A DNA stretch of 64,000 nt from Marsupella aquatica. Its lineage: Eukaryota; Plantae; Marchantiophyta. A program made the position numbers and the translations under genes. The notes below the pieces were generated by a model. That model searched no databases and was not told the origin of the DNA. It worked only from the letters and a program-made list of their open reading frames with translations. This document shows positions 16,482 to 64,000 of the stretch, piece after piece. Every line of letters begins with the position of its first letter. Within the stretch, counting starts at the first letter, position 1. The stretch is from the NCBI GenBank assembly GCA_973895155.1, contig OZ316892.1, positions 8,549,480 through 8,613,479 of the forward strand, in the 5' to 3' direction.

Positions 16482-18026
16482 CTAACCAACAACTCCACGC
16501 CTTTCCTCCTCCAGCCAATGTGTAATGGCATCCTGGAATGGGAAATCATCTAAAGAGAAAAACTTCTGAGTGAACATCCGCACCGTGCAATCCAAATGAC
16601 TCCCCAATCTGTTCCTAAGCTTACTCTTCACAAATGACATAGTGGAGAAAATTCGTTCATCCTCCACTGAACCTGTCACCATGACCACAGCAATTTCCGC
16701 AAGCTTAAACCACTCCCCCATCTTTGCCCGAATCAAAGGATTCGCCCCCAATCTCTTCCATAGTCGTGTCATGGGATTTTTAATGTCAGGGTTAAACTCT
16801 TGCTCTCCCATTACCTTGGCAGCATTCGCCTCCATGGTTAGCTTGAAAAAACTCTGTTCATCTCGCAGCAAGCCGTAATCGAGAATAGGATCGATGACAG
16901 CAGTACTGTCCTCACCTGATTCACCTTCACGGGAAATCGACTTTGGATCACAGAAGCTTGTCTTGATCACTTGAAGGTACCAGCCAAAATTCTCCTCTGC
17001 ATCGTCTCTTTCCCAATACTGCGGATGGACTATGCCCAGAGCGTTCAACAGGTCAACGTTAGGAAACCATGTGTCAAACAGCTTAATCAACTTTGATGCT
17101 GCTTCTTTACACTGATTCTTCACAGTATAAACAACATGGTCGAATGCATGTCGTGTAACAGGTAAGTCATGCCCAAGAATCTCATCAAACCAATGGGTCG
17201 GATAGTTGTGGTCACCAATTCGAAAGGAGAGATACTCCACGCTAGTCTCCAAATCAGTCATCCACTCATGACTAACAGTGTGTGATCGACCAGCTACAAT
17301 CTCCTGAAATGTATGAAATGCCCCTGGCCTAAAGGAGGTTGCAAATCCACGTAATAACAGTGCAATTCTGCCTGATGTACCTTTACAACACATACTAATG
17401 AAATCTTGGATCATGACATCCCTGGATTGGGCAAACACAATCAGGTCATGCACAGATTTCAGCAAAGGCAATAAACATGGCAAGGATATGAACGTCTCCA
17501 GGTCCAATAATAGCTTCGCATTGGACTTTGCAGTTGCAAGTGTGGCCCCATTTGTAGACATTTGCACAACAAGTGTCTTGTACTCACGTAACACACTCTG
17601 CAACGGTTGTAGAAGGGAAATCCATTGAGTCTTGCTGTTCCATTCAATCTTCCGGCCCTCGGTCTCCAACTCAGCAGCGAGCCGTTGAAACTCTAGTTGT
17701 CGTTTGGGGCTGTGAGCAAAATATGAATGCAGGCTGGAGACAAGGGCCTCGATCTTTTGTACAACTAGCAAGGAGTCCAATTTCTCCACATAGATGTTAG
17801 TCCTGTGAGCGCAACAATGCAAGCCAGTCATGAATGGAGCATGGTGTTTCTGTATGCGAGCCAAAACCCCTGTTCGATGCCCTTGAAAAACGACAGCTCC
17901 ATCTGCTCCAAAGCTCACTAGCTTTGAAGCTACTTCTTTCCAACCAAGATTACCACAGTCTCCAGTCAAGGACTCCACCACAACAGTAGTCAAGTTCGCA
18001 GCATCAGCGCCATTGGTCAACTTTTG
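16482..18026 (-). pseudogene. hAT transposase, C-terminal part (DGA, CxxH, RW-equivalent QW, dimerisation domain)
   Basis: Motifs SFGADGA, HCCAHR, KTQWISL, SVEDERIFS, KSKLRNRL; joins in frame to the N-terminal part as ...PFLLSLQ-KLTNGADAANLT once the insertion and one TSD copy are removed. Confidence 0.9.
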
Positions 18027-19133
18027 TGTCACCTGCTTATCAAACGATTTACACGACAAATACGTATTTACTCCTACTAAAATCGTTTGTTATCGTATGA
18101 CAGGAACGTGGAGGGACGCTATTAGGATTCTATTGCATGTAGGATGAGTATGTTTATTTTTGCTCCCGGAAATGTAATTTTTGATCAAGTCTACCGACTA
18201 GCCGCTCTGCTTTTGATCAAGTCCCATGGACTACGCCACACACACACTCCTACTGGTCGTTGGTGGAGTGCTGTCACCACCCCTCCCTACTCACATGGTT
18301 GACCAAACCGTGCAAGGATTCCTTAGATGTTTCTTGGGGAAAGAATACAATCGTGAACCAAAAAAGGTAACACCACACCAAAACTTGAGGAATCAAACCA
18401 AATCCATATATTTTGGCAAAACGTCGTAACACATTGCAAGGACAACCCGGCCTCCTGCCGTCTGCCCAACTACTGCCTCACTGGGGCAAGTGTGTAAACA
18501 TCTACCTCACTACTCTGGCTTGATTCCCCCTTCTGGCTATGAGCTATCTTCCCTAAGCAAACACTAGACTGAGTCCCGCCCCTCACTACTACGGGGCTCT
18601 CCCCCTAAATACCAAAAAACACACCAAAGTACCCTTCATGGGGCCACAACGATGGCGGCTTACCCTAGCGGCGCCACTAAACCCTTCACTAAGAAACCCC
18701 TAAACTAAAAGCATGCGGCACACACATGCTTCTAAAACCCTAAACCCTAAACTAACAATGGGGCCGATGGTGCCTTCGACGGCGCCCCAACATTACTCCG
18801 TGAACCGTGAAATTGTAAGGAACCCCACAATGGCTGAAACTAGGTGCCCTTCCACTTGCACTTCTGAGTTCACCCCTGGATAGCCCTCCTCTTTCTGATC
18901 ACGAATCACTCAACCGCTCTCGAAACGGACATCGGACGACCAAGTTATGGCCGTTTCCATATCCCGTAAACACAACTTCGTCGGGCCATAACCTGCTCAT
19001 CCTGGCTCTGTTTGAGGAGCGCCGCCCCTTGTTGGAATCAGCTTCGCGAGCTCTTTCCAACAAGCCCGTGAGTGACCCCTAAAAAAAAAATTGGAAAGTC
19101 CAGGGTCCGTACAACCACGTCCGTACGACCACT

Positions 19134-20996
19134 CTAATCCTCCTCCTCTTCGCTCACGGTGCCCTGGCTTGAGCCCCGTGAGTGGGCCTCCTCATCACTC
19201 TCCACTGGAGTGAGTGCCACTTCACTCCTCTTCTTCTTCACCCGGGTAGTCTTTGTGCTAGTGCTCCCCTGCTTCCTCAAATTGGCCAAGGCCTGCCACG
19301 CCTTAATGTACCCCTCACCAAAGGTGTCCTTCCATAGGGCCGCCTCTTCACCGGACCGCAACTCCAATGGTAAAACCTGCCCGGTGGCCATGGGAGTCCC
19401 AGGGGTGACAGATCGGGGTGGCATCCCCGGGGTCCCCGTGTTGACCTGAGCTTCTCGTAACGATTTATGTACCTCCCTGAGCTTCTTCTCTAAGCTCTTG
19501 CTCTTCTCTTGACTCTTCTTGGCTGCATCCAACAGGGGTCCATACTTCCCACTGACTTCCTTCACCACCATCTCAATGGCCCTGGAGACCAAATCCGGGG
19601 AAAGTGTGGAGCTAGGTGTGCAGGGGCTCTTCCGTTTCCCCAGACTCAAGGCCTCACTCCTCTTAGCCCTTGTCTCGAAGATCACCATTTGACCCCGTAG
19701 TGTTCCCACCTGGGCTCTTAACTCCACCACTTCTCCAGAATTCTGCTTCTCTTTGGCCAATGCCTGTTTCAATACTCCAACCTCTTCCGCTTCCTTGGCC
19801 TTGGTGGACAAGGCTCCCTTCAAGTTGGAGATCTCTACATGAGCTGCTTGGAGAAGTTTAACCTTCTCATGAATGGCCTCCTCCTTGGCCTTGATCACCT
19901 CCTTCATAGACAGGGCACTCTGCTCCAAAGTCTCTACTCTGGCGGTGGCCTGCTTGAGAGAATCTCTCAATGCGTGGACTAGCTTGAGTCCCTCATGGAC
20001 TCCCTCCCGAAAATCCCGTAACTCTGCCAGGTAGACATCAGGAATGTCGTAGACCAGGGGCTCCTCCGTATTTCCCACAAGTGATTCAAGCCACTCCATT
20101 GTGGAGTCCTCATCCTGGTTTTCTTCCTCTCTATTATCATCCCCAACCGCCGACGATGATCCCTCCGTTAGTTTTCCCAAGATGGTAGTGGCAATACTCC
20201 TGATTTCCGTGGTAAGGGATGATCCAGTGTCTTCCTGTCCCGGGGAAACAATCCACCCTTATGCTCTGGCTAGCAAAAATGACCCCATCAAATGTACAGC
20301 CCCACCTGGTTTCACACTCTCGGGATTGGCGTCCAATAGCTTCTTCAACCCATAGTACCACCATCCGTACACATGGGCTGGATAGTTCTTGATGTCCATA
20401 GCTACCACAAAATTCTCTCCATTCACCACCCCAGATTGCACGTTACCAAGGACCCGTTGATGAACCTTGGCCATAAATCCCTTGTGCTCAGCATCCTTGA
20501 CGGCGGAAAGAGGAATGGAAGTAGTGGAGGTGGGATTAATCACCCAACCGGCCACCATTGTCAACGTGAGCTCTCCCCTTATGTTCCGAGGTGTGAATGA
20601 GAATTGCTGGTTCTCCAGGAACAGAAGCTTAGCTAACTCCACATGGGGCACTACCCGCTGGAGACATTCAAAGTAGATTCCTTCCGTACGTAACTCCATC
20701 CCGGCCTCAATGTTCCAACTCTTCCCCGAAGGGATTGTAATCTCCACCTTCATGAACTCCGTGAGCCCGGTGGCTTGAAAAATATTCCTACAATCCTCCA
20801 TCACCTTGGTGGAGGTTTTGGGATAAATTCGACGAAAAACCCTCCTACTCACCGGTGTGGAACTTGCCGCCAGCCCAGTACTCATCGTAGCTTTTCTCTC
20901 TTCTCTCTCTCTTGCAATCAATGTCTCAATGTAGTCACGGTAAGCAGCCTTGTATCTCCGAACGCGTGTCGCACTAAACTCCGGTTGATCCAGCAT
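19134..20996 (-). pseudogene. Retroelement accessory-type ORF: N-terminal globular domain, long coiled coil, acidic/basic tail
   Basis: ORFs 20259-20996 and 19134-20180 share a frame and are separated by one TAA (20259-20261); read-through gives about 620 codons; the frame continues upstream through two TGA codons; the C-terminal half is E/K/A/L-rich heptad-like. Confidence 0.7.
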
Positions 20997-21352
20997 CCAT
21001 GCATCCAGAAATCAAATCCTCAATCACCAAATCCCGTCACCCGTAGCAATGTCAATCCCCTGGCCCAAAACGGCCCCCGTATCCCGATCAATCAATTACC
21101 CTCAATTCCCTCAGAAGCCACTCCGTGCTGCTGCCGCTAATGCTCGGAAGAATCATGCCAACAAGCCCCAACAATTGACCATGAGAAAGGGCTTTCAGAA
21201 TAATTGCAAAATGTGGAGAGAGCTTTCGGCAAGAGTTGAGAGAGAGCCCGAGTTTTTGCTTTCGGCAATGAGTTGGTCTTGCAAAAGAGAGGAAGTGAGA
21301 AAATAGGAAGGAAAAAAAAGGAAACCCCGTGGCTCCTTTGCTAATTTTCCCT

Positions 21353-21857: not shown

Positions 21858-22795
21858 TTTTGCAAGGACAGTAGGAAAGGGATTCGTTCCCACCCTCTCA
21901 TCACATAAACATGAATGCTTATCCATGTAGTGTTGTCAATGGCAGTTACCTCATCGGCAGATACTGAGATGTAACGAGCTCCAAAACACCACTCCCGAGT
22001 CTTCAAGCGAATGATGTGGAAAATGCTCTCTGCCATTCCCCAGCCTGAACTCATGCTCTAGTGTGTGGTCGGTGTCTTTGGAACCCTCAAATGTTGAAAC
22101 AACTTCAACATGGCTTCATAGTCAGTCATGGGACGTCCCAATGTAAGCAGACTAAAAAGAACAGAAAACTGGACTGCCTTTCTCTTCCGTTCAAGACTCA
22201 CTGCCTCTTGAATCTGTCGATGGATGGGGTCTTGTGGCAGCCGCAACAACAACTTCTCATTCTTCTCATGTTGAGTGGTACCGGAAAAATAGAAGGTGCC
22301 CTTCACATACTTCTTGCCTTGGATAACTATGGACTTCTCTGCACGCCTCCTTCCAACATGTTTCCAAAGACCATCAATCTTTGGAACATATAACTTCTCC
22401 CTCCCTTCAATCTTAGTGCAGATTGTGCACCGCACTTGGGTGACCACCCCTTCTGTGTCCACCGTAGCTGCTGTCGCCCAGGGATGAACGGCTGCCCATC
22501 CAGGCTGGAAGTGGCGCTTCATCTCGTAGCTACGCTTCCGCTTCTTGGTCACTTCTTCAGCCTTCCCATCTTCAAGAATCACAACATCGGGGTCTACACC
22601 GTCTGCCCCGCTATTGACAATCTCATTCTCAATCGGAGAATCACCTGGAGACGAAGACCCAGAGCCATGAAAGACAGGGGAGCCATTAGGATTGCAAGGC
22701 TTCAAACGATTACTCAAAAATTACTTAACCATGAGATTGTTTGGCAGCCCTGAGGCACGTGCTGCTGCCTTCAATTTTGCTTTGGTCATTGCCAT
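21858..22795 (-). pseudogene. hAT transposase, N-terminal part (zinc-finger-like W..C..C region, first catalytic D in SADEVT)
   Basis: ORFs 22058-22717 and 21794-22054 are in one frame with an upstream ATG at 22795; in-frame stops near 22721 and at 22058; motifs FQPGW..HPW, VRCTICT, ISVSADEVTAIDNTTWISIHVY; reading frame ends at PFLLSLQ at the insertion site. Confidence 0.85.
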
Positions 22796-35869: not shown

Positions 35870-36770
35870 AAATTGGAACTTCTTGACCGTCCTACAATCC
35901 CGGCATCCACTTCTTCATACTTAGGTTTGGCTCGATTTGTTCGTTTTATGTCTTTAAGAACTCAGGAATACAAAAAAGCTGGGATTTGTTACGAGCAGAA
36001 GAGAATCCAACTCGGAAAAGACTGAAGCCCAAGCATGAGTGTTTCCATTCCTCAAAATAGAATCAACGCTCTTCTACTGCCGCCAGGTGGCTTATATATG
36101 GAGGACACTGGATAAGTGGTGAGAGCATATGTCACTGTGTAGGTCCTTATTCGTTCTGAATTTCCGTCTAACTTGGAAAAGCTTGATCATTCTACAATCA
36201 ATCGCCGCATCACTTCTACATAGTTAGAAATTTGAGATTTTTCAGTCATTTTGTTCTTTTTCTTTCTTTAACTCAGAAATACAGAAAAAAAATAGTGGGA
36301 TTTGTTACGAGTAGAGGAGAATCCAACTCGGAAGGCTAAGGCCCAAGCATGAGAGTTTCCATACCCCAAAATAGAATCAAAGCTCTTCTACTTCCGCCAG
36401 GTGCCTTAATCTGGAGGCCACTAGATAAATAGTGAGAAAGTGAGTCCTTGTGTAGGGCCATATTTATCCTGGATTTTTTTGCTAAATTGGAAAAGCTTGA
36501 CCAACCTACAATCAATCGCTGCATTACTTCTACACCATACATAGAAATCTGACATTTTTTAGTCAATTTGTTCTTTTTATTTCTTTAACTCAGACATACA
36601 AAAACAATAGTGGGATTTGTTACGAGTAGAGGAGAATCGAAAACGGCTGAACCCCAAGCAGGAGTGTCACCTTTCAACAAAAATAGAATAAAAGCTCGTC
36701 TACTTCCGCGAGGTGCATTATATGTGGAGGACACTGGATAAGTAGTGAGAAAGTAAGTCCTTGTAGAGGT
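35870..36770. repeat. Tandem repeat, about 318-bp unit, about 2.8 copies
   Basis: GGGATTTGTTACGAG at ~35981, ~36297, ~36611, each followed by CCCAAGCA..AAAATAGAAT..CTACT.CCGC.AGGTG. Confidence 0.9.
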
Positions 36771-49845: not shown

Positions 49846-52800
49846 TCATCCATTCTCTGTCCACACAAAAGCTAGTAATACAAGAGCAAACAAGCCGGTC
49901 AGAACGGAAGCAGCATAGATCCATTCGGTCAATTTCAGCCGTGAGCTCGCTTGCCCGGTCTTCTCAACTTCGCTCAAAATCTTGCGAATTTTCTCCATGT
50001 CGCCGTCCTTGGCAGCTTTAACGAACGCATCTTCGTTCTTCATCATTAGCTTGCTCTTCAGGAATTTCACCTCGTCTCGTCTTGACCACAAGAAGCTAGT
50101 CAGTCTCCACAGCAGTATGCCCATGTATATTCCAGCCACCACATCCACACTGTAATGGTGGCGTTCTCTTATCTCCCTTTGGGCAGAATGGAGAACCAGC
50201 AACCACACTAACCCAGCGGTCCACCCTGGGTATGCTTCCTGCAAACAATGTGCATTTTACTCCCACATGATTGCCATAAACACAAAAGGCTAATCTTGGG
50301 AAGCCAGGGCTGGAAATACACCTCCATATATGCACTCCGTTATATGTGTAGCAGAACATAGCGATTAAAAAGCAAGAACATTATACTAATCATACTGAAA
50401 CAATACGGACCTTATGAGTCTCCTGCAAAAATTAACGAAAACAAACCTCAAAAAACCTAGGCTGTTGACTAAAACCATGCACATTTTCCAGTTAATAGTG
50501 AGATAGATGGGACAACGCACCGTCCATGCCATGGCAGTGAGAACAGAGACCAAGATGTGTCCACTGAAAATTAAATCATTGCAACCGCCTCCAGCTCGTT
50601 TCAGCGTAGAAAACCAGGACTCCCCTTGAAATTCGGGGAAGTTCTCGGGATCCGGAGGCCTCAGGAGATTAACCAAGAACTGCATGCTGCCCCAGTTGGG
50701 TACGTACTCGGCTGGGTACTCTGCTGCGGAAGCTGCAATGGCGACAATGGCACCATTGGTAATGTAGCCATAAGATGTATATCTCTTGCTTTGACCAAGG
50801 AGAGACATAAGCGCACAATGAAATTACTGCTGTCCATGTCACCTATTCAATGTTATAACCTATGTAGCAGGATACAGTTTGCTTCACCATTTCTACCCCC
50901 ACAAAAAAGGACTCACAGGCATTTCATATGCATTGGCTAGTTTCACTAAGCATAGACAAGAGGTGAGACTCGGAAAAGTTTGATTGAAAAAGTTACATTG
51001 TTACTCATCTTACCAATAAGTTCATCATTTCGTAAAAGCTTCCGAACCATCTCCGGATTGCTTGCATAAGGAATGTAATACTTTTGGGCCCAGGGGTGAG
51101 GATGACTTGCAGTTCGGAAACGGCCATGAGCGCACCAAGGCCGCGCTGATGGAATGATTGTAGGGACGAAGGTCATCACACGTAGAAGCCGACCAATCCC
51201 CATGGCAAACATGTATCGTGCTCCGAGACCCATGCCTGGAGCTTTCACACAGTCGTAAAGTACAGAGAAGGGCAGGAAAAGGAACAGTATCAAATAGTGG
51301 TGAAGACCAATCAAGGGAGCACGAAGAACGGTCACCATCCATGGAGGAAGCTGTTCATTCAGGTAAAGAAACAGCCATTGCCCAGTGTCAGGGAGGGGTG
51401 CTGAAGCCCTGCACAATACGATGGCATGAAACCATGTAAGGCTGTTGCAGTAGATAAATCACAAATACGACCCACCAGAACCAAGCTCTTCAGCAGACAT
51501 AAGTCTTTGCAAACACAAACTGTTCAAGTGATCAAACCAAGCATATATACGACGGCAGGACTCAAAATTTACTGATGCAAATTATCCATATCAGAGGCCG
51601 CATAAGCCACCTATAGGAACATACAAAATAGATACGCTCAAGACCTTAGGCACCATCATTCTCAGACGTCATTTGAATAGGTGAACCTTCCGATCGAGCG
51701 GGGATACTTAGGGGTAGAAAAACCACGATGGACCAGGCAGAGATGCATACACACAGATACTTGTAGTTCTGTAACAACATTTCTAATTCAGACATTGGTG
51801 ACATGAAAGCAACCGGCTTAAAAGAAGCTTAGGGCATTATACAAATGTCCTCTGAAGGAAGGACATAAAAATGCCCTTTGAAGGAATGCTCAATTCGAGA
51901 GCCGGCATGAGTGAAGAGGAAATAGCTGTCGTTATCTACTTTAAGATTCGAGCATCGTGGCAGAGTAAGACTACCACTGGAGGACTTCACAAGTTTCTGC
52001 ACGCAATGTATGAGATTCCAAGTACACTAGCAGATTAGAGAACTGTCTTTTAACCGACTAATTACAAACAGGGCCACTAAAACATGTAAGAAATTCTATG
52101 TCCAGGACAGTTACGAACAGCCGATACACCATGAAGCGAACGAGCGTGACTTATCCTATGTATTATACTTAACCAACCCGCCCTCGACAATTCAGCAGAC
52201 ATCACACAAATCTCTGGGAACAGTACCATGAATTTGACCTCTAGCAGACAAATGAAGCCACAATAACAGGACCCCAAAACGACAATTGACCGGCTGCTAC
52301 GTGCAATTTGGATGCAAAGCCAGAAAACGATGAACGAACTGAATGTCACTTCCACATGGACCCAATCCGGCCATGACACCAGAAATTTTGTGTAGGTTTC
52401 CAATTTCAGCGTCGCTGACAAGGAGGCGAAAGAAAAAACGGAATATTATAGAATAAGCCGCTTGCTCACTAAACGCAGTATTCAAGCTATACTCCTAATA
52501 AATTCAGAACCTGCACGAAGATTGACCTCCAAAATTTGTTACTCTCCTACAAACCTGAGGAGTTACTTTATCTTTAGTCCGACCGATTAATCGTAGAAAC
52601 TGAGGGGATGATTCAAGAGAGTCAGTGAATGAGTTTTTGGATTGAATGATTGATGTCGGAAGGAAGGAAGACGACAGTACACGGGGTGGAGTACAGAGCC
52701 ACAATTGGAAATTCTACATCTGCGAGAGAGAATGTAAGAATCAATTTGAAAGATTTACAATCTCCAATTCGAAACAGATACGATTTGAATTGAGGTGATT

Positions 52801-53173
52801 CGAATCGAAATAGATTGAACGGGGACAGGAAAACGCAGACAAGGATTCCAAGAATAGATGAGTCGTACCAATGCCAATCCAGACCCAGTACAGTGGTGAC
52901 AAACTGCACGGAGATGGCCTCCAAGATAAGAGCGCTGAGCATGAACAGCAAACTGCCCACAAAAACTCCCACACATCTCAGCTCCTTCTTCCAGTGGGGA
53001 TAGAAGGGCGCCCGAGAAGCCAACGCTACAGCCAGAAATCCCCACAGCCATGGCTGCAGCCTACGATGCAAATCCGGCTTCAGTTCTCGTAAGTAGTCCA
53101 CTGTGATGTACGCCACTGCTGCGACCCCCACCGCCTTTGGCATCGGCGTCCATCCCATTCCCCACCTGCCCAT
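49846..53173 (-). CDS. PLM: Sphingomyelin-synthase-like membrane protein (PHLOEM UNLOADING MODULATOR family, PAP2_C domain), 434 aa, 4 exons
   Basis: Exons 53173-52869, 51408-51014, 50732-50521, 50238-49846, phase-consistent GT-AG; motifs PLPDTGQW, IPSARPWC, GGGCNDLIFSGH, RERHHYSVDV. Confidence 0.93.
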
Positions 53174-55036
53174 CTCTTCCCTTCTCCCAACCAACCAACC
53201 AACACAATATTGGAATGCAATCTATCCTCTCCTCATCAGATTTGTGGATTCGTCATAGCAGAATCCTTCTTCTGCTCCGCCCAGACATCAAACAGCCAGC
53301 CCCTTACTGACTCCTCTCCAGGTTGTTGAGAGAGCTCAATTCCATCTCTCCAATTTCATCGTTTCACGTCAATCTCTCCAAGTCGTGGACATATCTCGTC
53401 ATTTCCAGCGAACAAGGATCAACCTGACAACAAGACTATTGCCTCTCCTGTTTCTCGTTTTCTCCTTCCAATGGCAACCTGTGTGCATCTCTGGATGTGC
53501 CATAGCGCTGCTGCTGTCCCTATTGGCTGACATTTCTGTTGCCATGGCTCAATTGGCCGGCTGTGGGATTCCAACTCCATCCACTCATCCCGTCGTTCTC
53601 TATGCCTGACCAAAATTCCAGGAAAGTCTATGCGCCTCAGAATCTGTGTCAAAATTTGTTGTTGAAGGCAGCGCAATCGGCACACGCCTGTGCTGCAATG
53701 GGTACGAGACCCTTCCTCCTCCCATCTTCTACTTCTGACTCGAGCAAAACCACCCTTCTCTTGTCCATTTCAAACTCTACCGGGTAGAATAGAGTTTCCT
53801 CCATGCTTACTCTCGCTCATCCATTCATTTTCCCACCTTTTAGATCCCCTTCAAGCCGGCCTCCGTCTCTCCACTGACAAATCTTAGTTGTTTTTTCTCC
53901 TCGTGCTTCCATGCTATTCCTGAAATTCTCTTCTTCCCGTGGTCCTTTCATCAGATTCGTCTGATTCTGGTTTCCTGCCTCTTCTAGTATAGACTTCGCC
54001 AGCATGCGGGGGGCAGCAACCCTTTCTTCCGTGCTGACTGAGACAGCTATTATAAAAAGCTTGCAGTCTCGTGATCAAGCCAATGGATGAATGGAAAGTA
54101 CATTAACGAAAGTACTGTACCGTGTACTTTTCCCCGCCTCATCATTCACTCACTGAACTCACGCATTCCTTACTAAAAGCATCATTATTCAATTCTTTTC
54201 TCACACGGCTTCTGCGGTTCTGCCCCCTTTCTCTCTAGCCATCCATTAATTAAAAGCTGCGCTGTACCAAACTTCCAACATGCAACGACAAATTCCGATC
54301 TTCGCTGACATAACAACTCCAATCACATGAGGGAAGCAGGAAGCTCAGTTTTGGAAAAGACAGAACTGACGACCGTCCCCCAGTTCCAAATGGATCGAAC
54401 TACCCAGCCAATTTTCCGTCGGGCCGAACAATTCACCTGCTCCCAACAAAACCCACGACTCGGATTTTGGATCCAATGTCTTCGTCGATCCGATTTTGGC
54501 ATGATTTACAGGAGTCTTTGGCGTTATTTTCGTCAGCGAACGGATGAGGCGAAGAATTCTGTTGACTGGAATAGAAGAGAGGCAGACAAGTACTGACGGA
54601 TCGGTGTTTAGCAATGTCAGTTGGCTCCGTGGCAAAGTTAGCATCTCCGATTCGTCGGTGTTTATCAGTCTGTCGTCTGTCCTCGGCTCTCATCCATTGG
54701 CGTCTTGAAAGATGACAAGTGGGATTATTTTGTCGGTACTGTAGGAAATCTCGCATTAGATTGGTCGGCATTATCACAAACTCGTGCACCTGGCATTACG
54801 ATCTTGTTAACTAGGGTCATCCTAATGAACTACGGTTAGCTGTGTCAAGTTGGGAAGTCAGTTTAGGGTTAATTAATGAAAATTAGAATCATTTGTAATT
54901 ACTTTTATTTCGGTCATTACTGGCCCTTGAGATTTACAGTTGAACAGGTAGTAGCAATCGACCCCGGTTTGAGCTGTCGGACAACTTGTCATTTGTCGCC
55001 CGAAAATGACCCTATTTGTCGCATATTCCTTCTTAT

Positions 55037-55206
55037 GCCCCGGTCCGGCCCCGGCCCGGCCCGGCCAGGCCCAATCCCTTCCCGGCGCGGCCCATTCCCT
55101 CCCCGACTAATCCCGGCCCCTTCCATTCCCGGCTCGGTCCGGCACCCGACTCGGCCCGGTCCCTTCCCGGCCCGGCCCCGCATCCCGCCCGGCCTCACAA
55201 ACACTA
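55037..55206 (-). repeat. C-rich (CCCGG) array ending in a hAT-like terminus, inverted relative to the following array
   Basis: Reverse complement reads TAGTGTTTGTGAGGCCGGGCGGGATGCGGGGCCGGG..., homologous to the start of the G-rich array at 55208. Confidence 0.75.
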
Positions 55207-55207
55207 G

Positions 55208-55790
55208 GTGAGGGCGGGCCGAGTGCGGGGCCGGGCGGGATGCGGGACCGGGCCGGGAAGGGGCCGGGCCGGGCCGGGACGGGGCAGGGCCGGGAATGGA
55301 AGGGGCCGGGCCGGGAAGGGGCCGGGCCGGGAATGGAAGGGCAGGACCGGGAATGGGCCGGGAATGGAAGGGCAGGGAATGGAATGGGCCGGGAGTGGAA
55401 TGGGCAGGGCCGGGAATGGCAGGGCCGGGAATGGGAGGGCCGGGAAGGGGCAGGGCCGGGCCGGGAATGGGAGGGGCCGGGCCGGGAAGGGGCAGGGCCG
55501 GGCCGGGAAGAGACCGGGCCGGGAACGAGAAGGGACCGGGCCGGGAACGGGATGCGGGGCCGGGCCGGGAAGGGACAGGGCCGGGAATGGAAGGGGCCTG
55601 GCCGGGAAGGGACAGGGCCGGGAATGGAAGAGGCAGGGCCGGGAATGGTAGGGGCCGGGAATGGGAGGGGCAGGGCCGGGGAGGGGAAGGGACCGGGCCG
55701 GGAAGGGGAAGGGACCGGGCGGGATGTGGGGCCGGGCCGGGCCGGGGGAAGAGACCGGGCCGGGACCGGGGCGGGGAGTTCGGTCCGGGG
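55208..55790 (+). repeat. G-rich subterminal repeat array (GGGCC/GGGAA units)
   Basis: Dozens of GGGCCGGGAA(TGG/GGG) units; typical of hAT subterminal transposase-binding arrays. Confidence 0.9.
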
Positions 55791-56015
55791 CGATTTTCCC
55801 GTTAACTTTAAGGGCCGGGGCAAGTTTTAGGGCCGGCTATCGTTAGGGTTAGTGAAATAGAGGTTCCTCTAACATAGGATGAATGCCCCATAGGCCATTA
55901 CTCAACACTTGTATAAAAAGGGTCATCACATGTTCATTTATTCATTCTTTGAAACTTGTATTCCAATGGAAGCTCATAGGTCTAAAGGAGGGAGCAAGAA
56001 TGACTTTTGTACGCG

Positions 56016-56385
56016 CATGTTTGGAGCTTCGGCTCGGCGTGTGGCATTTCGTGCAGAAATTTTCAAATCTCCCTTAACAATTTAATGATATTTGTGAGTT
56101 TTGTGATACAATTATAACGATAGAAGTATTCATGTACGCATGTTTGGAGCTTCGGCTCGATGTGTGATATTTTGCATGGTTATCGTAATTCGTCGAAAAT
56201 GTTTTCACTCAATTAGCAAATTACCGTTAAATTATAGATAGCACATACGTCGGATAGGAAAGTGAATGACTTAAAACAAAAGTAAACATTTGTGCTCATG
56301 CTTGGAGTTTAGACTCGGCATGGGATATTTCACTAATGTTTTATCTTCCTGTTTCCAAGTCGTTACTTTCAAAACAAAAATAAAA
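56016..56385 (+). repeat. Left arm of long diverged inverted repeat, with three CATGYTTGGAGCTTCGGCTCGGC motifs
   Basis: Motif at ~56016, ~56139, ~56297; colinear similarity to the reverse complement of 63660-64000. Confidence 0.85.
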
Positions 56386-56451
56386 CTATTTTTTGGTTGA
56401 GTGAAGGCATTTCACACTTATTTGTGAGTTAGTACTTCATTGTTTTCGACC

Positions 56452-59331
56452 ATGTCTTCAGATGAAGATGAGTCAGGTGACTTATCAGCCCATTCAACTC
56501 CTGTTAGACAAGGTCAAAATCCGGCGCGAGAACGTAGTGCAAAATTTTCCCCGGTATGGAAATATTTTGATCGATGTGACTCTCCGTCAAGCTGTCATGA
56601 CATCAATCGTATGTATCGAAAATGCCGGTTTTGCAAAAAATATACTACGTTCCATGCAACACGAGCAAGGGCACATTTGATGGGAAATATATACAAAGGG
56701 GATGCACCACCTTGCCTAGGACTCTATGATGTCATCGAATTGGATGACATCAATAGAATGTACAATGTGATCAAAGTGGAATCTTCTATTAGGTACAAAC
56801 GAAGCGATGGAAGTCATATACTATTGTCTGCCAGAGGTCGAAGATCGTTTATCCAAACGACAAATTCGCAAGCTTCAACTCGAGGCTCCAATCATGTTGA
56901 CGTGGAGGAGAATCCAAACATGAGTAATGCGGCTAGGGCATCAAGTCTTTCAAACCCTATTATAGATGCTTATCAAATTCCAAATAGATCATATTTGGAT
57001 AAGCTGTGGGCAAAAGCTTTTTACTCAAGTGGTATTCCGTTCAATGTCTCAGAGAATCCATTATTTCGAGAAGCAGTTGCAGAGATTTCTAAAGGAATTG
57101 TTAATGGGTATTCTCTTCCTAGTATGCGAAACCTCCGATTCAAATTGTTGGAGGAGGTCAAAGTTGATGTTGCAAAAGACATGACAAAAACCATGAAGGA
57201 GGCCAAACCTTTTGGATATACCCTTTCATCAGATGGATGGGAAAATATCCGAAGAGAACCCTTGATGAATGTCATGTTGTTGACTTGTAGAGGAGATATT
57301 TTCTTGGATAGTTGGAATGCTGCACAAGCTGATAAGAAAGATGGAAGATACCTTGGAGAGATGTGGCTGAAATATATAGACAAAATTGGCGCGGATCACA
57401 TCATACAAATTGTAACCGACGGTGCACCCGCTAATCGAGTTGGAGGTGAAGATATAGTGATGCAAAAATATCCGCATGTTACTTGGAGCTGGTGCGCTAC
57501 CCACATGTTTAATTTGTTACTAGAAGACATGTGTGGCCATAAGAAAATTGTGGTAGATGAAAGTGGACGGAATACATTCAAATTCATTTTCAAACGTTTG
57601 AGGTGGATAGTAAAAGCAGTTTCATCATCCCAAAAACTCTCCGCAATTTTTGTTCAAAAATCTGTCTACAGAAAACTGTTGAATTCAAATGCAACAAGAT
57701 TTGCGACCAATTTCTTAATGGCGCAAAGAGCATTGGAGCTAAGAGGTCCCTTGCAAGAAATGGTCATTGATGACAAATGGCATCTTTATCGTGATAGGCT
57801 TCCAGGTCACTCAAGGTCGGACGGGCACATGACGAGAGCAAAGGCAGACGAACTGAAGCAATGGATTCAACAAGATGCATTTTGGGCTCAAGTGAGTTCT
57901 ACAGTAACTTTTTTCACACCATTGGTGAAGATGCTACGTGAATTTGATGGGGACTCGCCGCAGTCAGCTTGGTTGTATTGGAGCTTGAAAAAGGGGATTG
58001 CTGATCTGGAGGCGAGCATGGAAGAATGTTCCTTAGTAATTGAGTACCTGAAACCAAGGATAAGGAAAGTGTATATGGATCGAAGGAAATCGCTTACTAA
58101 CGATTTCATGCTAGCTGCAGCATATTTGAATCCTCATTATTTCTTTGATGAAGACGAAGATGTGGGCGGAGATGCTGAGCTATGTAGAGGCTTCAATGAT
58201 TATGTTGCGAGATACGCAGAACACAGTGTGAAGCCAGGGATCAACCATGATCGTGATGTCACTAAACTTATTTTTGACATCCAAAAGCAAGCATTTGAGG
58301 CTCAAAAGAAATTGCCAAACACATCTGTTGGCATAAGAGGAGCCCAAGCAAATATTGAAAATTTCAGTCCGGGAGAGTGGTGGCATGCATATGGAGCTGA
58401 TTACAAGGATCTAAGGATCATAGCTAGGAAAATCACTCACCAACAAATGTGCGCATCATCATGCGAATGGAATTGGAGTTCGTATGGATTTATACATTCA
58501 AAAATTCGTAACAGGTTGACCAATGATCGGGCAAAAGATTTAGTCTTTGTATTCACGAATACGCGAGTGGAAAAAGGACTTACAAAGGTCCGAAACCCCC
58601 AAACGTTCATCTACAAACGTTATGATGAAAGAAGAGCAAGAAATGATGTACCTAGATCATCCCCCACTGAAGCCTTCCAGAACGAGGAGCATGATGCAAG
58701 AAGTGGGGGTCAGGGGGAGGAAGATGTCGATGATTTTGATACAATTGATGACGCCGATGAGGCGTTGCAAGGATTGTCATTGCAATGTGATAGTGAGGTA
58801 TTGACTCGTATTCCACCGGATACTGAGGATAGTAATGCGGGTGAATGGGAGGATGATACTGATTACTTGATGTTTCCTACGATTGACGAGTCTCAAGTCC
58901 AAGATGATGAGGAGTACTCATTGCATACAGGCTTTGATATGCATTCCCAACCAAACCCATGTTTCACTTTTCCAGGATTGAATGTCCATCGTGATCACCT
59001 AGCAAGTACTTCATATGCATTTCAACAAGGAAGTGACATACCAGAGCATCATTTGGAGGGAACTACTTCTGCCTTTTATGCACAACATGATCAATTACAA
59101 CGCCGAACACTACATAATGACGCACAGTGGGGACAAACAGTTACTCCAACAGTCAATGTCACGAACCCATACCCATCATACACGCATGCTCGTGTCGTTC
59201 AACAATCTCATGACAATGACGATTCGCATAATCGTTACCCATTTCCATGGGCCAATCGACATCATGAATTTGATGGACTCATGCAACGAAATCAGAACAA
59301 TATGACGAGGGATTACTCCTCACAGCCTTGA
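56452..59331 (+). CDS. hAT transposase (BED zinc finger, DUF659-type core, hAT dimerisation domain), uninterrupted ORF
   Basis: SPVWKYF..CRFCKK..RARAHL (BED); LSSDGW, IVTDGA, WCATH, ATRFATNF, AAAYLNP, EWWHAYG, SSCEWNWS, IHSKIRNRL; first ATG at 56452. Confidence 0.95.
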   Translation: MSSDEDESGDLSAHSTPVRQGQNPARERSAKFSPVWKYFDRCDSPSSCHDINRMYRKCRFCKKYTTFHATRARAHLMGNIYKGDAPPCLGLYDVIELDDINRMYNVIKVESSIRYKRSDGSHILLSARGRRSFIQTTNSQASTRGSNHVDVEENPNMSNAARASSLSNPIIDAYQIPNRSYLDKLWAKAFYSSGIPFNVSENPLFREAVAEISKGIVNGYSLPSMRNLRFKLLEEVKVDVAKDMTKTMKEAKPFGYTLSSDGWENIRREPLMNVMLLTCRGDIFLDSWNAAQADKKDGRYLGEMWLKYIDKIGADHIIQIVTDGAPANRVGGEDIVMQKYPHVTWSWCATHMFNLLLEDMCGHKKIVVDESGRNTFKFIFKRLRWIVKAVSSSQKLSAIFVQKSVYRKLLNSNATRFATNFLMAQRALELRGPLQEMVIDDKWHLYRDRLPGHSRSDGHMTRAKADELKQWIQQDAFWAQVSSTVTFFTPLVKMLREFDGDSPQSAWLYWSLKKGIADLEASMEECSLVIEYLKPRIRKVYMDRRKSLTNDFMLAAAYLNPHYFFDEDEDVGGDAELCRGFNDYVARYAEHSVKPGINHDRDVTKLIFDIQKQAFEAQKKLPNTSVGIRGAQANIENFSPGEWWHAYGADYKDLRIIARKITHQQMCASSCEWNWSSYGFIHSKIRNRLTNDRAKDLVFVFTNTRVEKGLTKVRNPQTFIYKRYDERRARNDVPRSSPTEAFQNEEHDARSGGQGEEDVDDFDTIDDADEALQGLSLQCDSEVLTRIPPDTEDSNAGEWEDDTDYLMFPTIDESQVQDDEEYSLHTGFDMHSQPNPCFTFPGLNVHRDHLASTSYAFQQGSDIPEHHLEGTTSAFYAQHDQLQRRTLHNDAQWGQTVTPTVNVTNPYPSYTHARVVQQSHDNDDSHNRYPFPWANRHHEFDGLMQRNQNNMTRDYSSQP

Positions 59332-59784
59332 TATGTTTTGTGATTACTACAAGATGATATATGTCAATTGTAATTTTTGAAGTATAATACATATTTTTTT
59401 CCCACTTTCAATGGCTTTGGTGCTTGGTTTTACTCTTGCTTGTGATTGTATCGTCGATTACAATTTTAGAGTGTTCTATATTTGAACGTATTTTTTTGAA
59501 ATAATCACCATATTATAGCAACAATCGCTGAATTCATATCTCCACGCAAAAGATTCACTGAGTGTAAAAATGAAGTAAAAATGTTTTCAACTTTCAAGGA
59601 CATGCCCATGAAAATCTCTGTGGTGCAGCCGGTACTATATATGAATAATATGATCTAATATCTAGAAACTATCCTATGCGGCCGATACTATAGAAAATGT
59701 GTATAGTACAACTAGGTAAGCGTACACTACACGATCAAAAATATATGAATATGCAAATAGCAAATATTTTGGTATCTTCCTCTC

Positions 59785-61652
59785 TCAATGCATGGTCATT
59801 TTCGCTTTCACTTCTGCTTGTTGCTGACGTCGCCGATGACGACGAATAGATCGTTGCATGTTTTGCTCGTTGGTAGTTGGTTGATTGGACTGAGCATACT
59901 CTTTCCATTCATTGAAACGACCACTGAATAACAACTTGTCAAAGTCACCATCTGACAGATTGTACTCATTGATTGTAAAGTTTTCAATGGGTGTGGAATC
60001 TATTTCCGTCATCGCCACACCGTCCTGAGTCATCTCTTCATCGTCTTGTTGTGTCTCCATTGGTGGGATTTGATTCAACAATCCTCGTTGCTCATACTCC
60101 CGTTCATGAAATGGTTTCCTACACCAATATTTTCGACTCTTCTTCATCCACCTGAATAAGCAAGCATGATGCCATAAATGTCCACAAGTTCCCAGAATGG
60201 AAACTGATTCTGGGCCCCATGGATATAAACACCAAGGACACCTTGCACCCTTTTGTCGAACAAATTCAGCCATACTTTCATCTTTCTTCCATTTATCAAA
60301 ATACTCCTCGACTGCTACCGAATCGACCTCCACATCAGGAAAAAGGTTAGATTCTAATGTAGGATCAATCATTTGAAAATTCATAAAATTGACATTGTTC
60401 AATTTTGATTTTCCTTTGCTCGATTCATTGTCCATATCAGAATTGTTCATTTGGTCTATCTCTTCTTGGAGATTTGTGATGATGAGCTTTTGTGATGCAA
60501 CTTCATCCTTCAGATTCTTTATGACTCTATTTTCTTGAAGTTGCGCTTGTTCATTGGATTGCCTTTCATTTTTGGCAACTTGACTTCGAAGCCTCTCAAT
60601 TTCTTCCATCTTGTCAAACAATTGGGCCTTGTATCGGTACATGTCTTGGACCTCACAATTGGTACCCGATGAAATAGACATCTTCTCTAGTGATTTCATC
60701 TTCAAATCACTCTCTTTTAGTTTTGACGCGTAGTAGTCAATGCTACCAGCGTCACAAAGTTCGAGACGGTAATTGACGCGAAGAATTTTCTCAATAAAAT
60801 CACCAATCTCACATCCCAACCCCTTGCAGACACTTTGCATGCAAGGAGTTCCCTTGTTGGCATCCAAAACACCCGTGTTGTTTGTTGGTAAGGTGCTACT
60901 TGGACCAATAAAAACGTTTGTTGTTGTCGTAGTGCTTTTTCCTTCTTTGATACAAGCGGCACTGCTTTCAGATTTTGTAAAGAACTGTGGGATTGCAGTC
61001 ATTTTTTGGCTCTCATTTGTATGCACCTTGTGCACTTCATCTATTTTTCGCTTGGAGCCTTTGTTGGTAGTCACAGGCATTTTATTCCTGTCACTTGTGG
61101 TGGAAAAGACTTTCAAGTGAACATTATGCACAAACTTGCCTTCGTCTGTCTCCCATCGGTAATCCACTTTCCACCTCAGGATGAATTCAACAATCAATAG
61201 TCGGATAAAAGGAGTATATATTGAACTCGTTTTCCCTTGTGCTTTTCTTGGAGCAAATTCCCTGTAACGTTGTGCCCAGTGCTGCTTCACCTCTTCATGT
61301 GTCACCTTCGACATAGTAAACTTATCTTGCAACCAAGACTTTGTGCCCCACATTTCCTCATCGCGAAAAATCATTTTGGCAAATTTTTGAAAAGCCTCCC
61401 TAGGCATCAATATTTCCAATTCTTTGGCGTTGATTGGCCATTCCATGTGAGGAGGTTTCACATCGGGTGTGAGGATATTCCATTGCACATTGGGTTTGGA
61501 CTCCTCCTTCGTCTGAGTTGCTGGAAGTTGTGGACGTCATGAAAACTGTAATTTTCGTGGTCCAAGTAAGACCCTTGACCATCTTGCATTTTAGGATCAT
61601 ATACACGATTGGCCTCATCATCCTCATCTGAACTCAAGTTCCATTTTCCCAT
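59785..61652 (-). CDS. Coiled-coil + RING-H2-like protein (transposon cargo); 5' end frameshifted or spliced
   Basis: ORF 59785-61488 has a coiled-coil stretch and CPWC..CGHLWHHAC..W..KYWC; a plausible acidic N-terminus (MGKWNLSSDEDDE) starts at 61652 in another frame. Confidence 0.75.
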
Positions 61653-61813
61653 CCTTGCAAGGTTTACAATAAAAACAAATATTTAGCATTCATTGCAACA
61701 TTCACCAAAAATAAAAAGTTTTATGAGATGATATAAAAATTTCAATTTATACCACATGATGAACATGTGATTGTTCATGTGGTAATTGAGAGAAGATAAT
61801 GGTGAAAACTAAT

Positions 61814-63474
61814 TTAATCTCTCAAATAAACACTATTTTGTGTCAACAATCTACACTCTTGAAATGTGCGAACCATCCTCAAACTCCAATGGGCACAATC
61901 CATTCTTTTGGTAGGATCAGTGGCCATCATGTCACGAATGATATTCTCTAATTTTGGACCATACACTCTAGTATTCCAACCCGCCATCAAAAATCGTGTG
62001 CTTGGCCCCATTCCATCCCAGTTTTCTGTGAGTAAAGTCTCGAACAAATTGCCTAGAGCATAGATATCAGTTGCTTCACTATACTCTGCTGGGTCAGGTC
62101 CAACAAGCTCTGGTGCCAATTGAGGGTATTGTCTTTGATAGGCAATAACTTTCTCACTTGGGGTGGACCACATTCGATTCTCTGGTAATGTACATTGTGT
62201 TTTGTGCTTGGATAACCCAAAATCACAAATTCCTACATACACTCTGATAGCAACATCATCCTCGTGATCAAAGTGAAGTAAGACATTTCCAAAATGAAGA
62301 TCACAATGTAGTCGATCGTGCTTGTGGAGAAACTGTAAGGTCTCCAACAAAGCCAAAGCAATCCCCAAGCGATGCTCCAAAAATATTTTCTTCTCGGATA
62401 TGAATCTCACATCAACCTGCACATTCCCTTGTGACTTCCCCTTGCTTTTACCCCATTTTCCACACTTATCCATGAAGCTTCCCAAGTCACCTCCATTGTA
62501 AAAATCATAGATAAGTTTGGGTGGAAATTCGATGGTCATTGCCAAGGCCCCAATAACTCCCTTATGATTCAAACCCCCCATTAGCACTTCTTGTAACGCA
62601 TCTTTTATCCTCTTGTGCCGATCTCCATCTTTGAATCTTTTTGCCACTAGCTTCACATTTCGAGGAATGAGTGGGCAATCCAAGATATGGCACAAGAACA
62701 CCTGCCCTTGGCTGCCACTCCCAATGCGATGTAAATTCTTCACTTGTTCCATCCTCAAAAAGTGAATACTCCTTACTGCTGGAACAACACGTGATGGTCT
62801 TGTACCTCTTTGGTGCCCTTCAACACCAAGTTCCCCAAATTGCACGACCTTATTTGCATATTTGACATTACTTTCTGTTCTGGCCATTCCTAACTCATTG
62901 CTCCATTTTAGACACAATTCTCTTTTGTGTCTATGGAGGGCAGGATTTCCAAGGAATATGGACTCAGCCCCCCCAAATTGGCTACCAACTTGTCCCACAG
63001 GTTCACAGCCAAGTTCAGTGCCAATTGCTCAACAAATCCTTGAGGCTTCTCAGCCTCGCGTTGAAATTGCTGAATCTGTTCTCGTGTCATGTCCTCTTCC
63101 TTCTCTACGGTTTGGCGCATGCAACGCACCATGTCATTTTGAAAGTTTTTGTATCCCTGTTCTCCATGTAAGGTATACTTCCTTTCAAACCTATCATGCT
63201 CATACTATTCCGGTTGGGTGTAGGGATATACTATATCCTTCCAAATGGCCAATAACACATTTTGTCGATGGTTGATGTCGATGGTTGTTTGAGCAGCCCC
63301 TCCTCTTTGTTTTCGCTTCCCTGCTATTTTGGCTTTTCTACTAAACCCTAAGATTTTGTGCGCATTCCTCAAGGCATTCAGGGCATTCGCATCTGGTTCC
63401 AATCCATTGCTCAGCATGGTACTCATCACCTCCATCAACTGCCTATATTCTACACCTACATCCGGGTTGGCCAT
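61814..63474 (-). pseudogene. Atypical protein kinase (transposon cargo); kinase domain ORF intact at 61814-62998, N-terminal extension carries one stop and one frameshift
   Basis: GSGSQGQV, VAKRF, alphaC E (LQEV), HCDLHFGN, DFG, APE, TDIYALG, PTKR; upstream ORFs 63205-63495 and 62908-63132 share a frame, separated by TAG at 63205-63207; frame switch fits the C7 run at 62968-62974. Confidence 0.8.
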
Positions 63475-63659
63475 GTTCCCGCGACACCAGAACAAAGAGT
63501 ATCAAAAGGAGTAGAAACTTACGATGCGTATTGGCTAGGAGGCGAGGTACTGATGCGGTGTGTACAACCAAGCTGCAATAGGAACTCCTGGAAAATCATG
63601 CGTGGTACACCTTGTCACGGGAGGGTCACGGGATAGTCACGAGATATATTTGTTTTTTT

Positions 63660-64000
63660 TCATTCATTATTATTATTGTGAATGTAACAACTGCAAAGGG
63701 GAAAGATAACTCTTGTGAAATACCCCACGCCGAGCCGAGGCTCCAAGCATGGGCACAAATGATATCCTATCCTTTCAGTTATTAACATTCCTGCTTCAAA
63801 TCTATGTGATAACTATAGTTTAGATACCATTTGTGAGGGAAGTGAAATCGTTCACGAGGAGTCGTAATATCCATGCAAAATATCACATGCCGAGCCGAAG
63901 CTCCAGGCAAGCGTACATGAATGTCTCTATCCTCGCAAACTTTCCACTAATTCCACAAATGACACTAAACTGTTAAGGCGATATTAGATTTTCCCATACG
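63660..64000 (-). repeat. Right arm of long diverged inverted repeat (truncated by window end)
   Basis: GCCGAGCCGAGGCTCCAAGCATG (~63729) and GCCGAGCCGAAGCTCCAGGCAAGCGTACATGAAT (~63889) mirror 56297 and 56128-56160; spacers also align by eye. Confidence 0.85.

Follow-up and report, generated by a model that had tools for sequence, protein, structure and literature searches.

A protein kinase gene and a RING-like gene opposite a hAT transposase in what is probably one decaying transposon of the liverwort Marsupella aquatica

Gene content of the locus

We examined a 64,000-nucleotide stretch of the genome of the liverwort Marsupella aquatica (GenBank assembly GCA_973895155.1, contig OZ316892.1, positions 8,549,480 to 8,613,479 of the forward strand; hereafter the window, whose own numbering is used throughout). 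Towards its right-hand end a plus-strand hAT transposase gene is faced by two minus-strand genes, one for a coiled-coil protein with a RING-H2-like domain and the other for a protein kinase, with a mirrored repeat arm in front of each side. Inspection of the sequence alone had suggested that these genes belong to a hAT transposon carrying its own phosphorylation and ubiquitination module (the original prediction), and here we set that proposal against protein family profiles, public sequencing reads, related sequences and published transposons.

The transposase gene (56452..59331, plus strand) is, as predicted, uninterrupted, forming an open frame of 959 amino acids with Pfam matches to DUF659 (E 2e-28) and to the hAT dimerisation domain (E 2e-8). 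The catalytic residues D261, D323 and E672 and the CxxH motif (C348xxH351) are all present, and a DDE triad with CxxH, a DUF659 core and a C-terminal dimerisation domain together place the protein in the hAT superfamily; its Pfam matches are to hAT families only, with none to a transposase of the Mutator-like element (MULE) type. An N-terminal BED finger is matched weakly and below the cut-off (zf-BED, E 0.043), with its Cys pair and His kept in the alignment. Relatives that are 55-67% identical to this transposase are open and full-length. Beside the catalytic Glu the window copy carries Trp673, where all aligned relatives (11/11) have Arg and where reads of three of the public DNA runs described below (X1, X3 and X4) also give Arg.

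Both accessory genes lie on the minus strand and point towards the transposase, an arrangement that Pfam matches bear out, that of the RING domain falling under the cut-off. The kinase gene (63474..61814; about 550 codons) encodes a helical N-terminal part followed by a kinase domain (Pkinase, E 4e-16) with a complete set of catalytic motifs: the Gly loop, the VAK lysine, the helix-C Glu, the HxD..N catalytic loop (here HCDLHxxN), DFG, APE and the subdomain IX Asp. The coiled-coil/RING-H2-like gene (61652..59785; about 620 codons) matches zf-RING_2 at 25.0 bits, against a cut-off of 27.3, and retains seven of the eight zinc ligands, all eight being present in the relatives P0016, P0071, P0018 and P0239. 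Both genes are longer than their open frames: their relatives, which are open, full-length proteins of 540-553 (kinase) and 624-643 amino acids (RING, with all eight ligands), show that they start at 63474 and 61652 and are broken in the window copy. In the kinase gene, 63205-63207 is an in-frame stop and the frame shifts near 62967; in the RING gene the frame shifts near 61527, and a Tyr replaces the seventh zinc ligand at 60129. These relatives align colinearly with the cargo genes, which agrees with the expectation that their coding regions lack introns. The three genes are closely spaced, with 453 nt between the transposase stop and the RING stop and 161 nt between the kinase stop and the RING ATG.

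Basic KRK patches, which we take to be nuclear signals, are conserved in both cargo proteins. The nearest solved structures to the kinase are Roco4 and other tyrosine kinase-like (TKL) and tyrosine kinases, at E 4e-9 or weaker, and a structure search of the Atlas with the kinase returned generic kinases only, speaking neither for nor against a fungal or viral origin. The N-terminal part of the RING protein gave no usable match in the Atlas, no VANC-like domain was found, and a fold search yielded nothing at E<=0.001, the model of the RING protein being poor (predicted local distance difference test, pLDDT, 48).

Read depth and integrity of copies

To place the locus among its copies, four of six listed public DNA runs were compared with positions 52000-64000 of the window. 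Depth was expressed as the ratio of the depth of picked contigs to that of a neighbouring host gene (49846-53221, minus strand), which is intron-rich, encodes a PAP2_C domain, is single-copy by depth and has the element in its upstream region. The host gene was matched with 0-3 differences at depths of 33-48 (X1), 50-60 (X3) and 72-94 (X4); the fourth run, X5, contained more distant relatives only. Some spacer values are sums over two contigs, and as a summed depth is no copy number, only flatness and order of magnitude are read from these ratios. From the transposase through the transposase-RING spacer and the RING-kinase spacer to the kinase, they amount to 14x, 16x, 17x and 17x in X1 and to 8x, 10x, 8x and 7x in X4. 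Given this flat, multi-copy depth, the three genes make up a single repeated unit in X1 and X4, two of the three informative runs, X3 being taken up in the Discussion. The possibility that the kinase and RING genes are single-copy host genes, which would have undermined the original prediction, is ruled out by their amplification together with the transposase in X1 and X4. X3 and X4 carry one species label, and over positions 55800-64000 their transposase ratios are about 2x and 8x, a several-fold difference that hints at recent amplification or polymorphism.

A single X3 contig of 3130 nt covers positions 61255-63999, comprising the 5' part of the RING gene, the spacer, the kinase gene and the right arm, with 22 differences and 2 gaps, and extends about 380 nt beyond the window. 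Contigs without the kinase frameshift occur in X1 (842 of 989 depth), X3 and X4, and contigs without the RING frameshift in X3 and X4. Intact copies appear to exist. Among the 40 variant rows listed of 570, the window has A or T where the reads have G or C in 26 and the reverse in 5, an excess that fits decay of a methylated copy, although over all variant places together the two substitution directions are balanced. In 30 of these rows picked by eye (10 were left out), the amino acid was altered in 13 of 16 transposase changes and in 0 of 5 cargo changes.

Relatives of the cargo genes and selection

Close relatives of the cargo proteins are few, and the only species name among them is that of the leafy liverwort Calypogeia fissa (4 of 15 kinase matches and 1 of 5 RING matches), the rest deriving from metagenomes. 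No ordinary host parent gene was found among these 15 kinase and 5 RING matches. A profile search with the kinase recovered 17 proteins at E<=1e-30, a number that rises to 62 at E<=1e-10 before the score drops sharply to generic kinases; a second tier of kinases has the same odd words, NGG and H-x-D-L-x-x-x-N. More distant kinase groups on metagenome contigs (P0090, P0095, P0098, P0105, P0109, P0112, P0118, P0122 and P0123) share these odd motifs and have N-terminal parts of their own. Viral contigs contained no relative of the kinase, the RING protein, the transposase or the arm motif, and prokaryote genomes no relative of the kinase. The kinase tree, with many open forks and unlabelled rows, was used for neither origin nor co-evolution.

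Of 91 candidate stretches in a metagenome scan, three were confirmed (L001-L003); L003, a distant match at 25%, was not used. Over about 376 codons the comparison of the kinase with L001, a copy that itself carries stops, gives a dN (nonsynonymous) of 0.31 and a dS (synonymous) of 2.9, hence a dN/dS of about 0.11, below 1 as had been anticipated; against L002, synonymous sites are saturated. These codon comparisons place the kinase under purifying selection.

The order kinase then RING recurs in relatives. In L001 a RING-like N-terminus, with a score reached by 0 of 1000 shuffles, starts 182 nt past the kinase stop, as compared with 161 nt in the window, and the kinase relative P0006 and the RING relative P0018, for both of which the longest contig listed is 5391 nt, likely lie on one contig. 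In Calypogeia, the accession numbers do not show kinase and RING as neighbours. The spacers following the kinase have no likeness to one another between the window, L001 and L002.

In L002 the kinase, 54% identical to that of the window, has a different neighbour. The arm in front of it is conserved (local scores of 104-115 versus shuffle maxima of 36-38; motif spacing 123 and 164), and directly after it lies a DUF6729 gene (2527-5521 of that stretch, plus strand; E 2e-11) in two frames that are likely separated by an intron. This gene encodes a four-Cys finger and then D, D, DxxH and E, an order read by eye against the description of Dada elements; Dada transposases are described as having an N-terminal four-Cys finger and a D-D-E triad with DxxH after the second D (PMC3706591). 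A structure model of this gene piece was poor (pLDDT 40). Either the kinase, together with its arm, also moves in other classes of transposon, or a relative of the present hAT has received a Dada-like insertion.

Repeat arms and boundaries of the element

The left arm (56014..56383, plus strand) stands in front of the transposase and contains three copies of a 36-nt motif, at 56014, 56137 and 56295 (spacing 123 and 158). The right arm (63667..63988, minus strand) contains the motif at 63753 and 63913 (spacing 160), and a third copy is predicted near 64036, just past the window edge. In a comparison of the window with itself, 56063-56383 and 63667-63988 form an inverted repeat of 71% identity over 326 columns (E 6e-35), and the motif on which both arms are built has no comparable score elsewhere in the 64 kb. 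The long inverted repeats of the original prediction are therefore real, but they are not terminal inverted repeats (TIRs) of the kind found in MuDR: the arms are internal, with the proposed left end some 850 nt further out and a G-rich array outside them. An Rfam search found no match within 54000-64000, L001 or L002. A 314-bp tandem repeat at 35935-36764 (2.6 copies) has a short word in common with the arm motif; tried as a relative of the motif, it did not align above shuffles.

The G-rich array was correctly recognised at the outset. It runs from 55207 to about 55790 (plus strand), is made up of GGGCCGGG-type units, has high read depth and likely represents subterminal repeats of the left end. 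Subterminal repeats are a feature of hAT elements, and we find them here in this array and in the motif-bearing arms, their binding by the transposase being putative. The placement of the left end at 55207 did not hold, because a C-rich array (55039..55199), the mirror image of the G-rich array, adjoins it directly on the left, and because depth is already raised in the bin 54807-55207. To the left of 54807 depth is at host level, which marks a boundary, and the true left end probably falls somewhere between about 54812 and 55207. The C-rich array may belong to the left end described here, or else a neighbouring copy may have its right end there. The bin of raised depth also contains a high-copy AT-rich piece (54812..55014) with a 9-bp inverted pair starting TAGGG, situated about 1.6 kb upstream of the PAP2_C gene. 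This piece is possibly a small separate hAT-type miniature inverted-repeat transposable element; a comparison of its 8-bp flanks gave no match. The interval 54812-55039 was also tried as a mirror of DNA inside the G-rich array and rejected, scoring 26 against a shuffle maximum of 34. The right end of the element lies beyond the window.

Elsewhere in the window, 16482-18089 and 22058-22720 (both minus strand) appear by eye to be the two halves of another hAT-type transposase, different from the first; between them is an insert of higher GC content (19134-21011, minus strand) with a coiled-coil frame and a 250-aa frame; neither half has a Pfam match.

Discussion

Taken together, we interpret the locus as a decaying copy of a three-gene unit, likely one DUF659-type bryophyte hAT, whose selected kinase and RING proteins are predicted to cooperate in the nucleus and to target a silencing protein of the host, and we assign this reading a probability of about 65%. 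Its parts differ in strength: that the three genes constitute one transposon is highly probable, and that the target of kinase and RING lies in anti-silencing is a tentative proposal, to which we give somewhat less than even odds.

The proposed element would end about 0.9-1.3 kb beyond the window and move by cut and paste. Each arm would serve as a promoter, and perhaps also as a transposase-binding array, with the left arm driving the transposase; in this the arms would resemble the promoter-bearing TIRs of MuDR (PMC6446971). The right arm would drive both cargo genes, with the kinase made from unspliced RNA and the RING protein from RNA that has lost the entire kinase frame by splicing. A splice-donor-like site of predicted use (63517..63522, minus strand) lies 48 nt before the kinase ATG and at an equal distance in L002, that is, at both loci with upstream DNA (2/2; expected by chance at roughly 0.05 per locus). 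In the window and in L002 an AG also stands 1-2 nt before the ATG of the next gene. A donor 48 nt before the ATG is too close for an ordinary plant intron. The donor spacing and the AG before the next ATG therefore suggest one promoter, whose transcript would give the kinase when left unspliced and the downstream gene after splicing, and we judge it an even chance that kinase and RING share a single alternatively spliced transcript. The presence of an E3 ligase alongside a kinase suggests degradation that depends on phosphorylation: the kinase would phosphorylate, and the RING protein ubiquitinate, a host chromatin or silencing factor, loosening repression of the element.

Several observations weigh against this reading. 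Whereas the original prediction of a hAT family with its own kinase and RING module is supported by co-amplification in X1 and X4, the transposase in X3 stands at 2.3x and the RING gene, kinase and spacers at 0.7x, an approximately three-fold excess, so that part of the transposase copies in that run either lack the cargo or were assembled apart from it. L002 pairs the kinase and arm with a different, Dada-like gene, and within 3.6 kb downstream of its kinase the DUF6729 gene was found, with no RING or hAT match. None of the contig pieces listed (32 of 3797) bridges the transposase-RING junction, so this link rests on the window together with the flat depth, and X1, of which 57% was read, has no cover in the bin 63228-63628. 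The read evidence for intact copies covers the frameshifts, not the kinase stop or the seventh RING ligand. The last RING ligand pair has the atypical spacing C-x-C, in addition to the sub-cut-off Pfam score, and at the left boundary a TIR pair or an 8-bp duplication was looked for within the window and neither was identified.

An alternative would keep the three genes in one transposon and direct the cargo inwards, the kinase marking the element's own transposase and the RING protein degrading the marked transposase, thereby timing or limiting transposition. Phosphodegron systems usually pair a kinase with an E3 ligase, the long, poorly conserved acidic tail of the transposase could be a substrate, and co-amplification in X1 and X4 suits this arrangement equally. 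In L002, however, the same kinase family stands before an unrelated DUF6729/Dada-like gene, which favours an outside target; because the kinase also occurs beside this unrelated transposase-like gene, we consider a host silencing factor slightly likelier than the transposase, and the inward-directed version as a whole improbable.

Less probable again is a separate non-autonomous element or cassette, consisting of arm, kinase and RING, which entered a plain hAT, or landed beside one, and was co-amplified in some lineages only. The unequal depth in X3 (2.3x versus 0.7x) and the other neighbour of arm and kinase in L002 are what such a history would leave, but both spacers are at flat depth in X1 and X4, the kinase-side arm mirrors the transposase-side arm, and the self-comparison revealed no repeat pair around the block at E<=1e-4. 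The three genes might also belong to a larger composite or giant repeat, as its left portion, with more genes or a second transposase following on the right and the hAT as only one component. That the right end is outside view, that L002 has another transposase-like gene in a related context and that the left boundary is itself composite would all accord with this, yet the right arm keeps register with the left arm up to the window edge, as if the end were about 1 kb away, and we hold a composite to be quite unlikely. Passive capture of host genes of no use to the element (Pack-type cargo) is very unlikely: although both genes are broken in the window copy and fungal hATs carry captured histone H3 copies that are mostly inactivated (PMC6710886), the kinase has a dN/dS of about 0.11, relatives keep open, full-length frames at 40-70% identity, no ordinary host parent is among the 15 kinase and 5 RING matches, and the profile score drops sharply to generic kinases.

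Our preferred reading, one hAT with a selected kinase and RING gene, has precedents of several kinds. DNA transposons of rust fungi include hAT7 with a TET gene and IS3EU, in which a TET gene separates the transposase from an alpha-kinase gene of opposite orientation, and accessory genes have been transferred between transposon superfamilies (Kojima 2025, PMC12730594). The likeness extends to autonomy, to intact accessory genes and, in IS3EU, to an opposed kinase and transposase that flank a third gene; the difference is that a fungal alpha-kinase and a TET/JBP dioxygenase stand where the plant hAT has a eukaryotic-type protein kinase and a coiled-coil/RING protein (PMC12730594). The histone H3 hATs of Pseudocercospora fijiensis are likewise DUF659 elements, of about 9.5 kb, present in many copies and with intronless extra genes, but their cargo is a recognisable host gene inactivated by repeat-induced point mutation, whereas here there is no recognisable parent and selection is purifying; moreover, 20-bp TIRs and 8-bp duplications are demonstrated in the fungus, and neither was identified at the left boundary of the window element (PMC6710886). 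Maize MuDR (mudrA/mudrB) resembles our element in its second gene and in long inverted sequences with promoters before each gene, and differs in its MULE transposase and terminal long TIRs, in contrast to a hAT transposase, internal arms only 71% alike and two enzyme-like cargo genes (PMC6446971). Of the MuDR-like layout originally proposed, the convergent orientation of the genes is borne out, and terminal repeats and a MULE transposase are not. Convergent genes are known from MuDR. The VANDAL elements of Arabidopsis also combine an accessory protein, VANC, with repeated non-coding motifs, but VANC is a sequence-specific DNA-binding factor with fast-diverging target repeats, while the motif described here is conserved over long distances (PMC10398659).

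The literature searched, which excluded Repbase and subscription journals, contained no hAT from a plant that carries both a kinase and a RING gene, and look-ups of the words 'hAT' and 'kinase' in two reviews found neither (PMC6431247, PMC13317346). The belief that no such element had been described thus stands for this combination in plants, but not for hAT accessory genes or for a kinase opposite the transposase, both published in fungi. DNA transposons with accessory genes are already known, and a kinase with a RING gene in a plant hAT is a new combination within them. At its furthest, the interpretation would be of an undescribed, transposon-only family of nuclear kinases in bryophytes, with an arm of about 400 nt as a promoter module portable between superfamilies (hAT here, Dada-like in L002), joined in this element by a RING protein expressed from the same promoter through splicing, and forming a phosphodegron system that destroys a host silencing protein; in this full form we consider it speculative and rather unlikely.

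According to textbook teaching a plant hAT has one gene, and the anti-silencing genes known from plants (VANC) encode DNA-binding factors of MULEs. Liverworts, being haploid and transformable, offer a setting for such questions. If our reading is true, a hAT that keeps a selected kinase and ubiquitin ligase would extend the means by which plant transposons act on or against their host to post-translational enzymes, and a family of liverwort kinases recorded as 'unnamed protein' would be flagged as transposon genes and not as host signalling genes.

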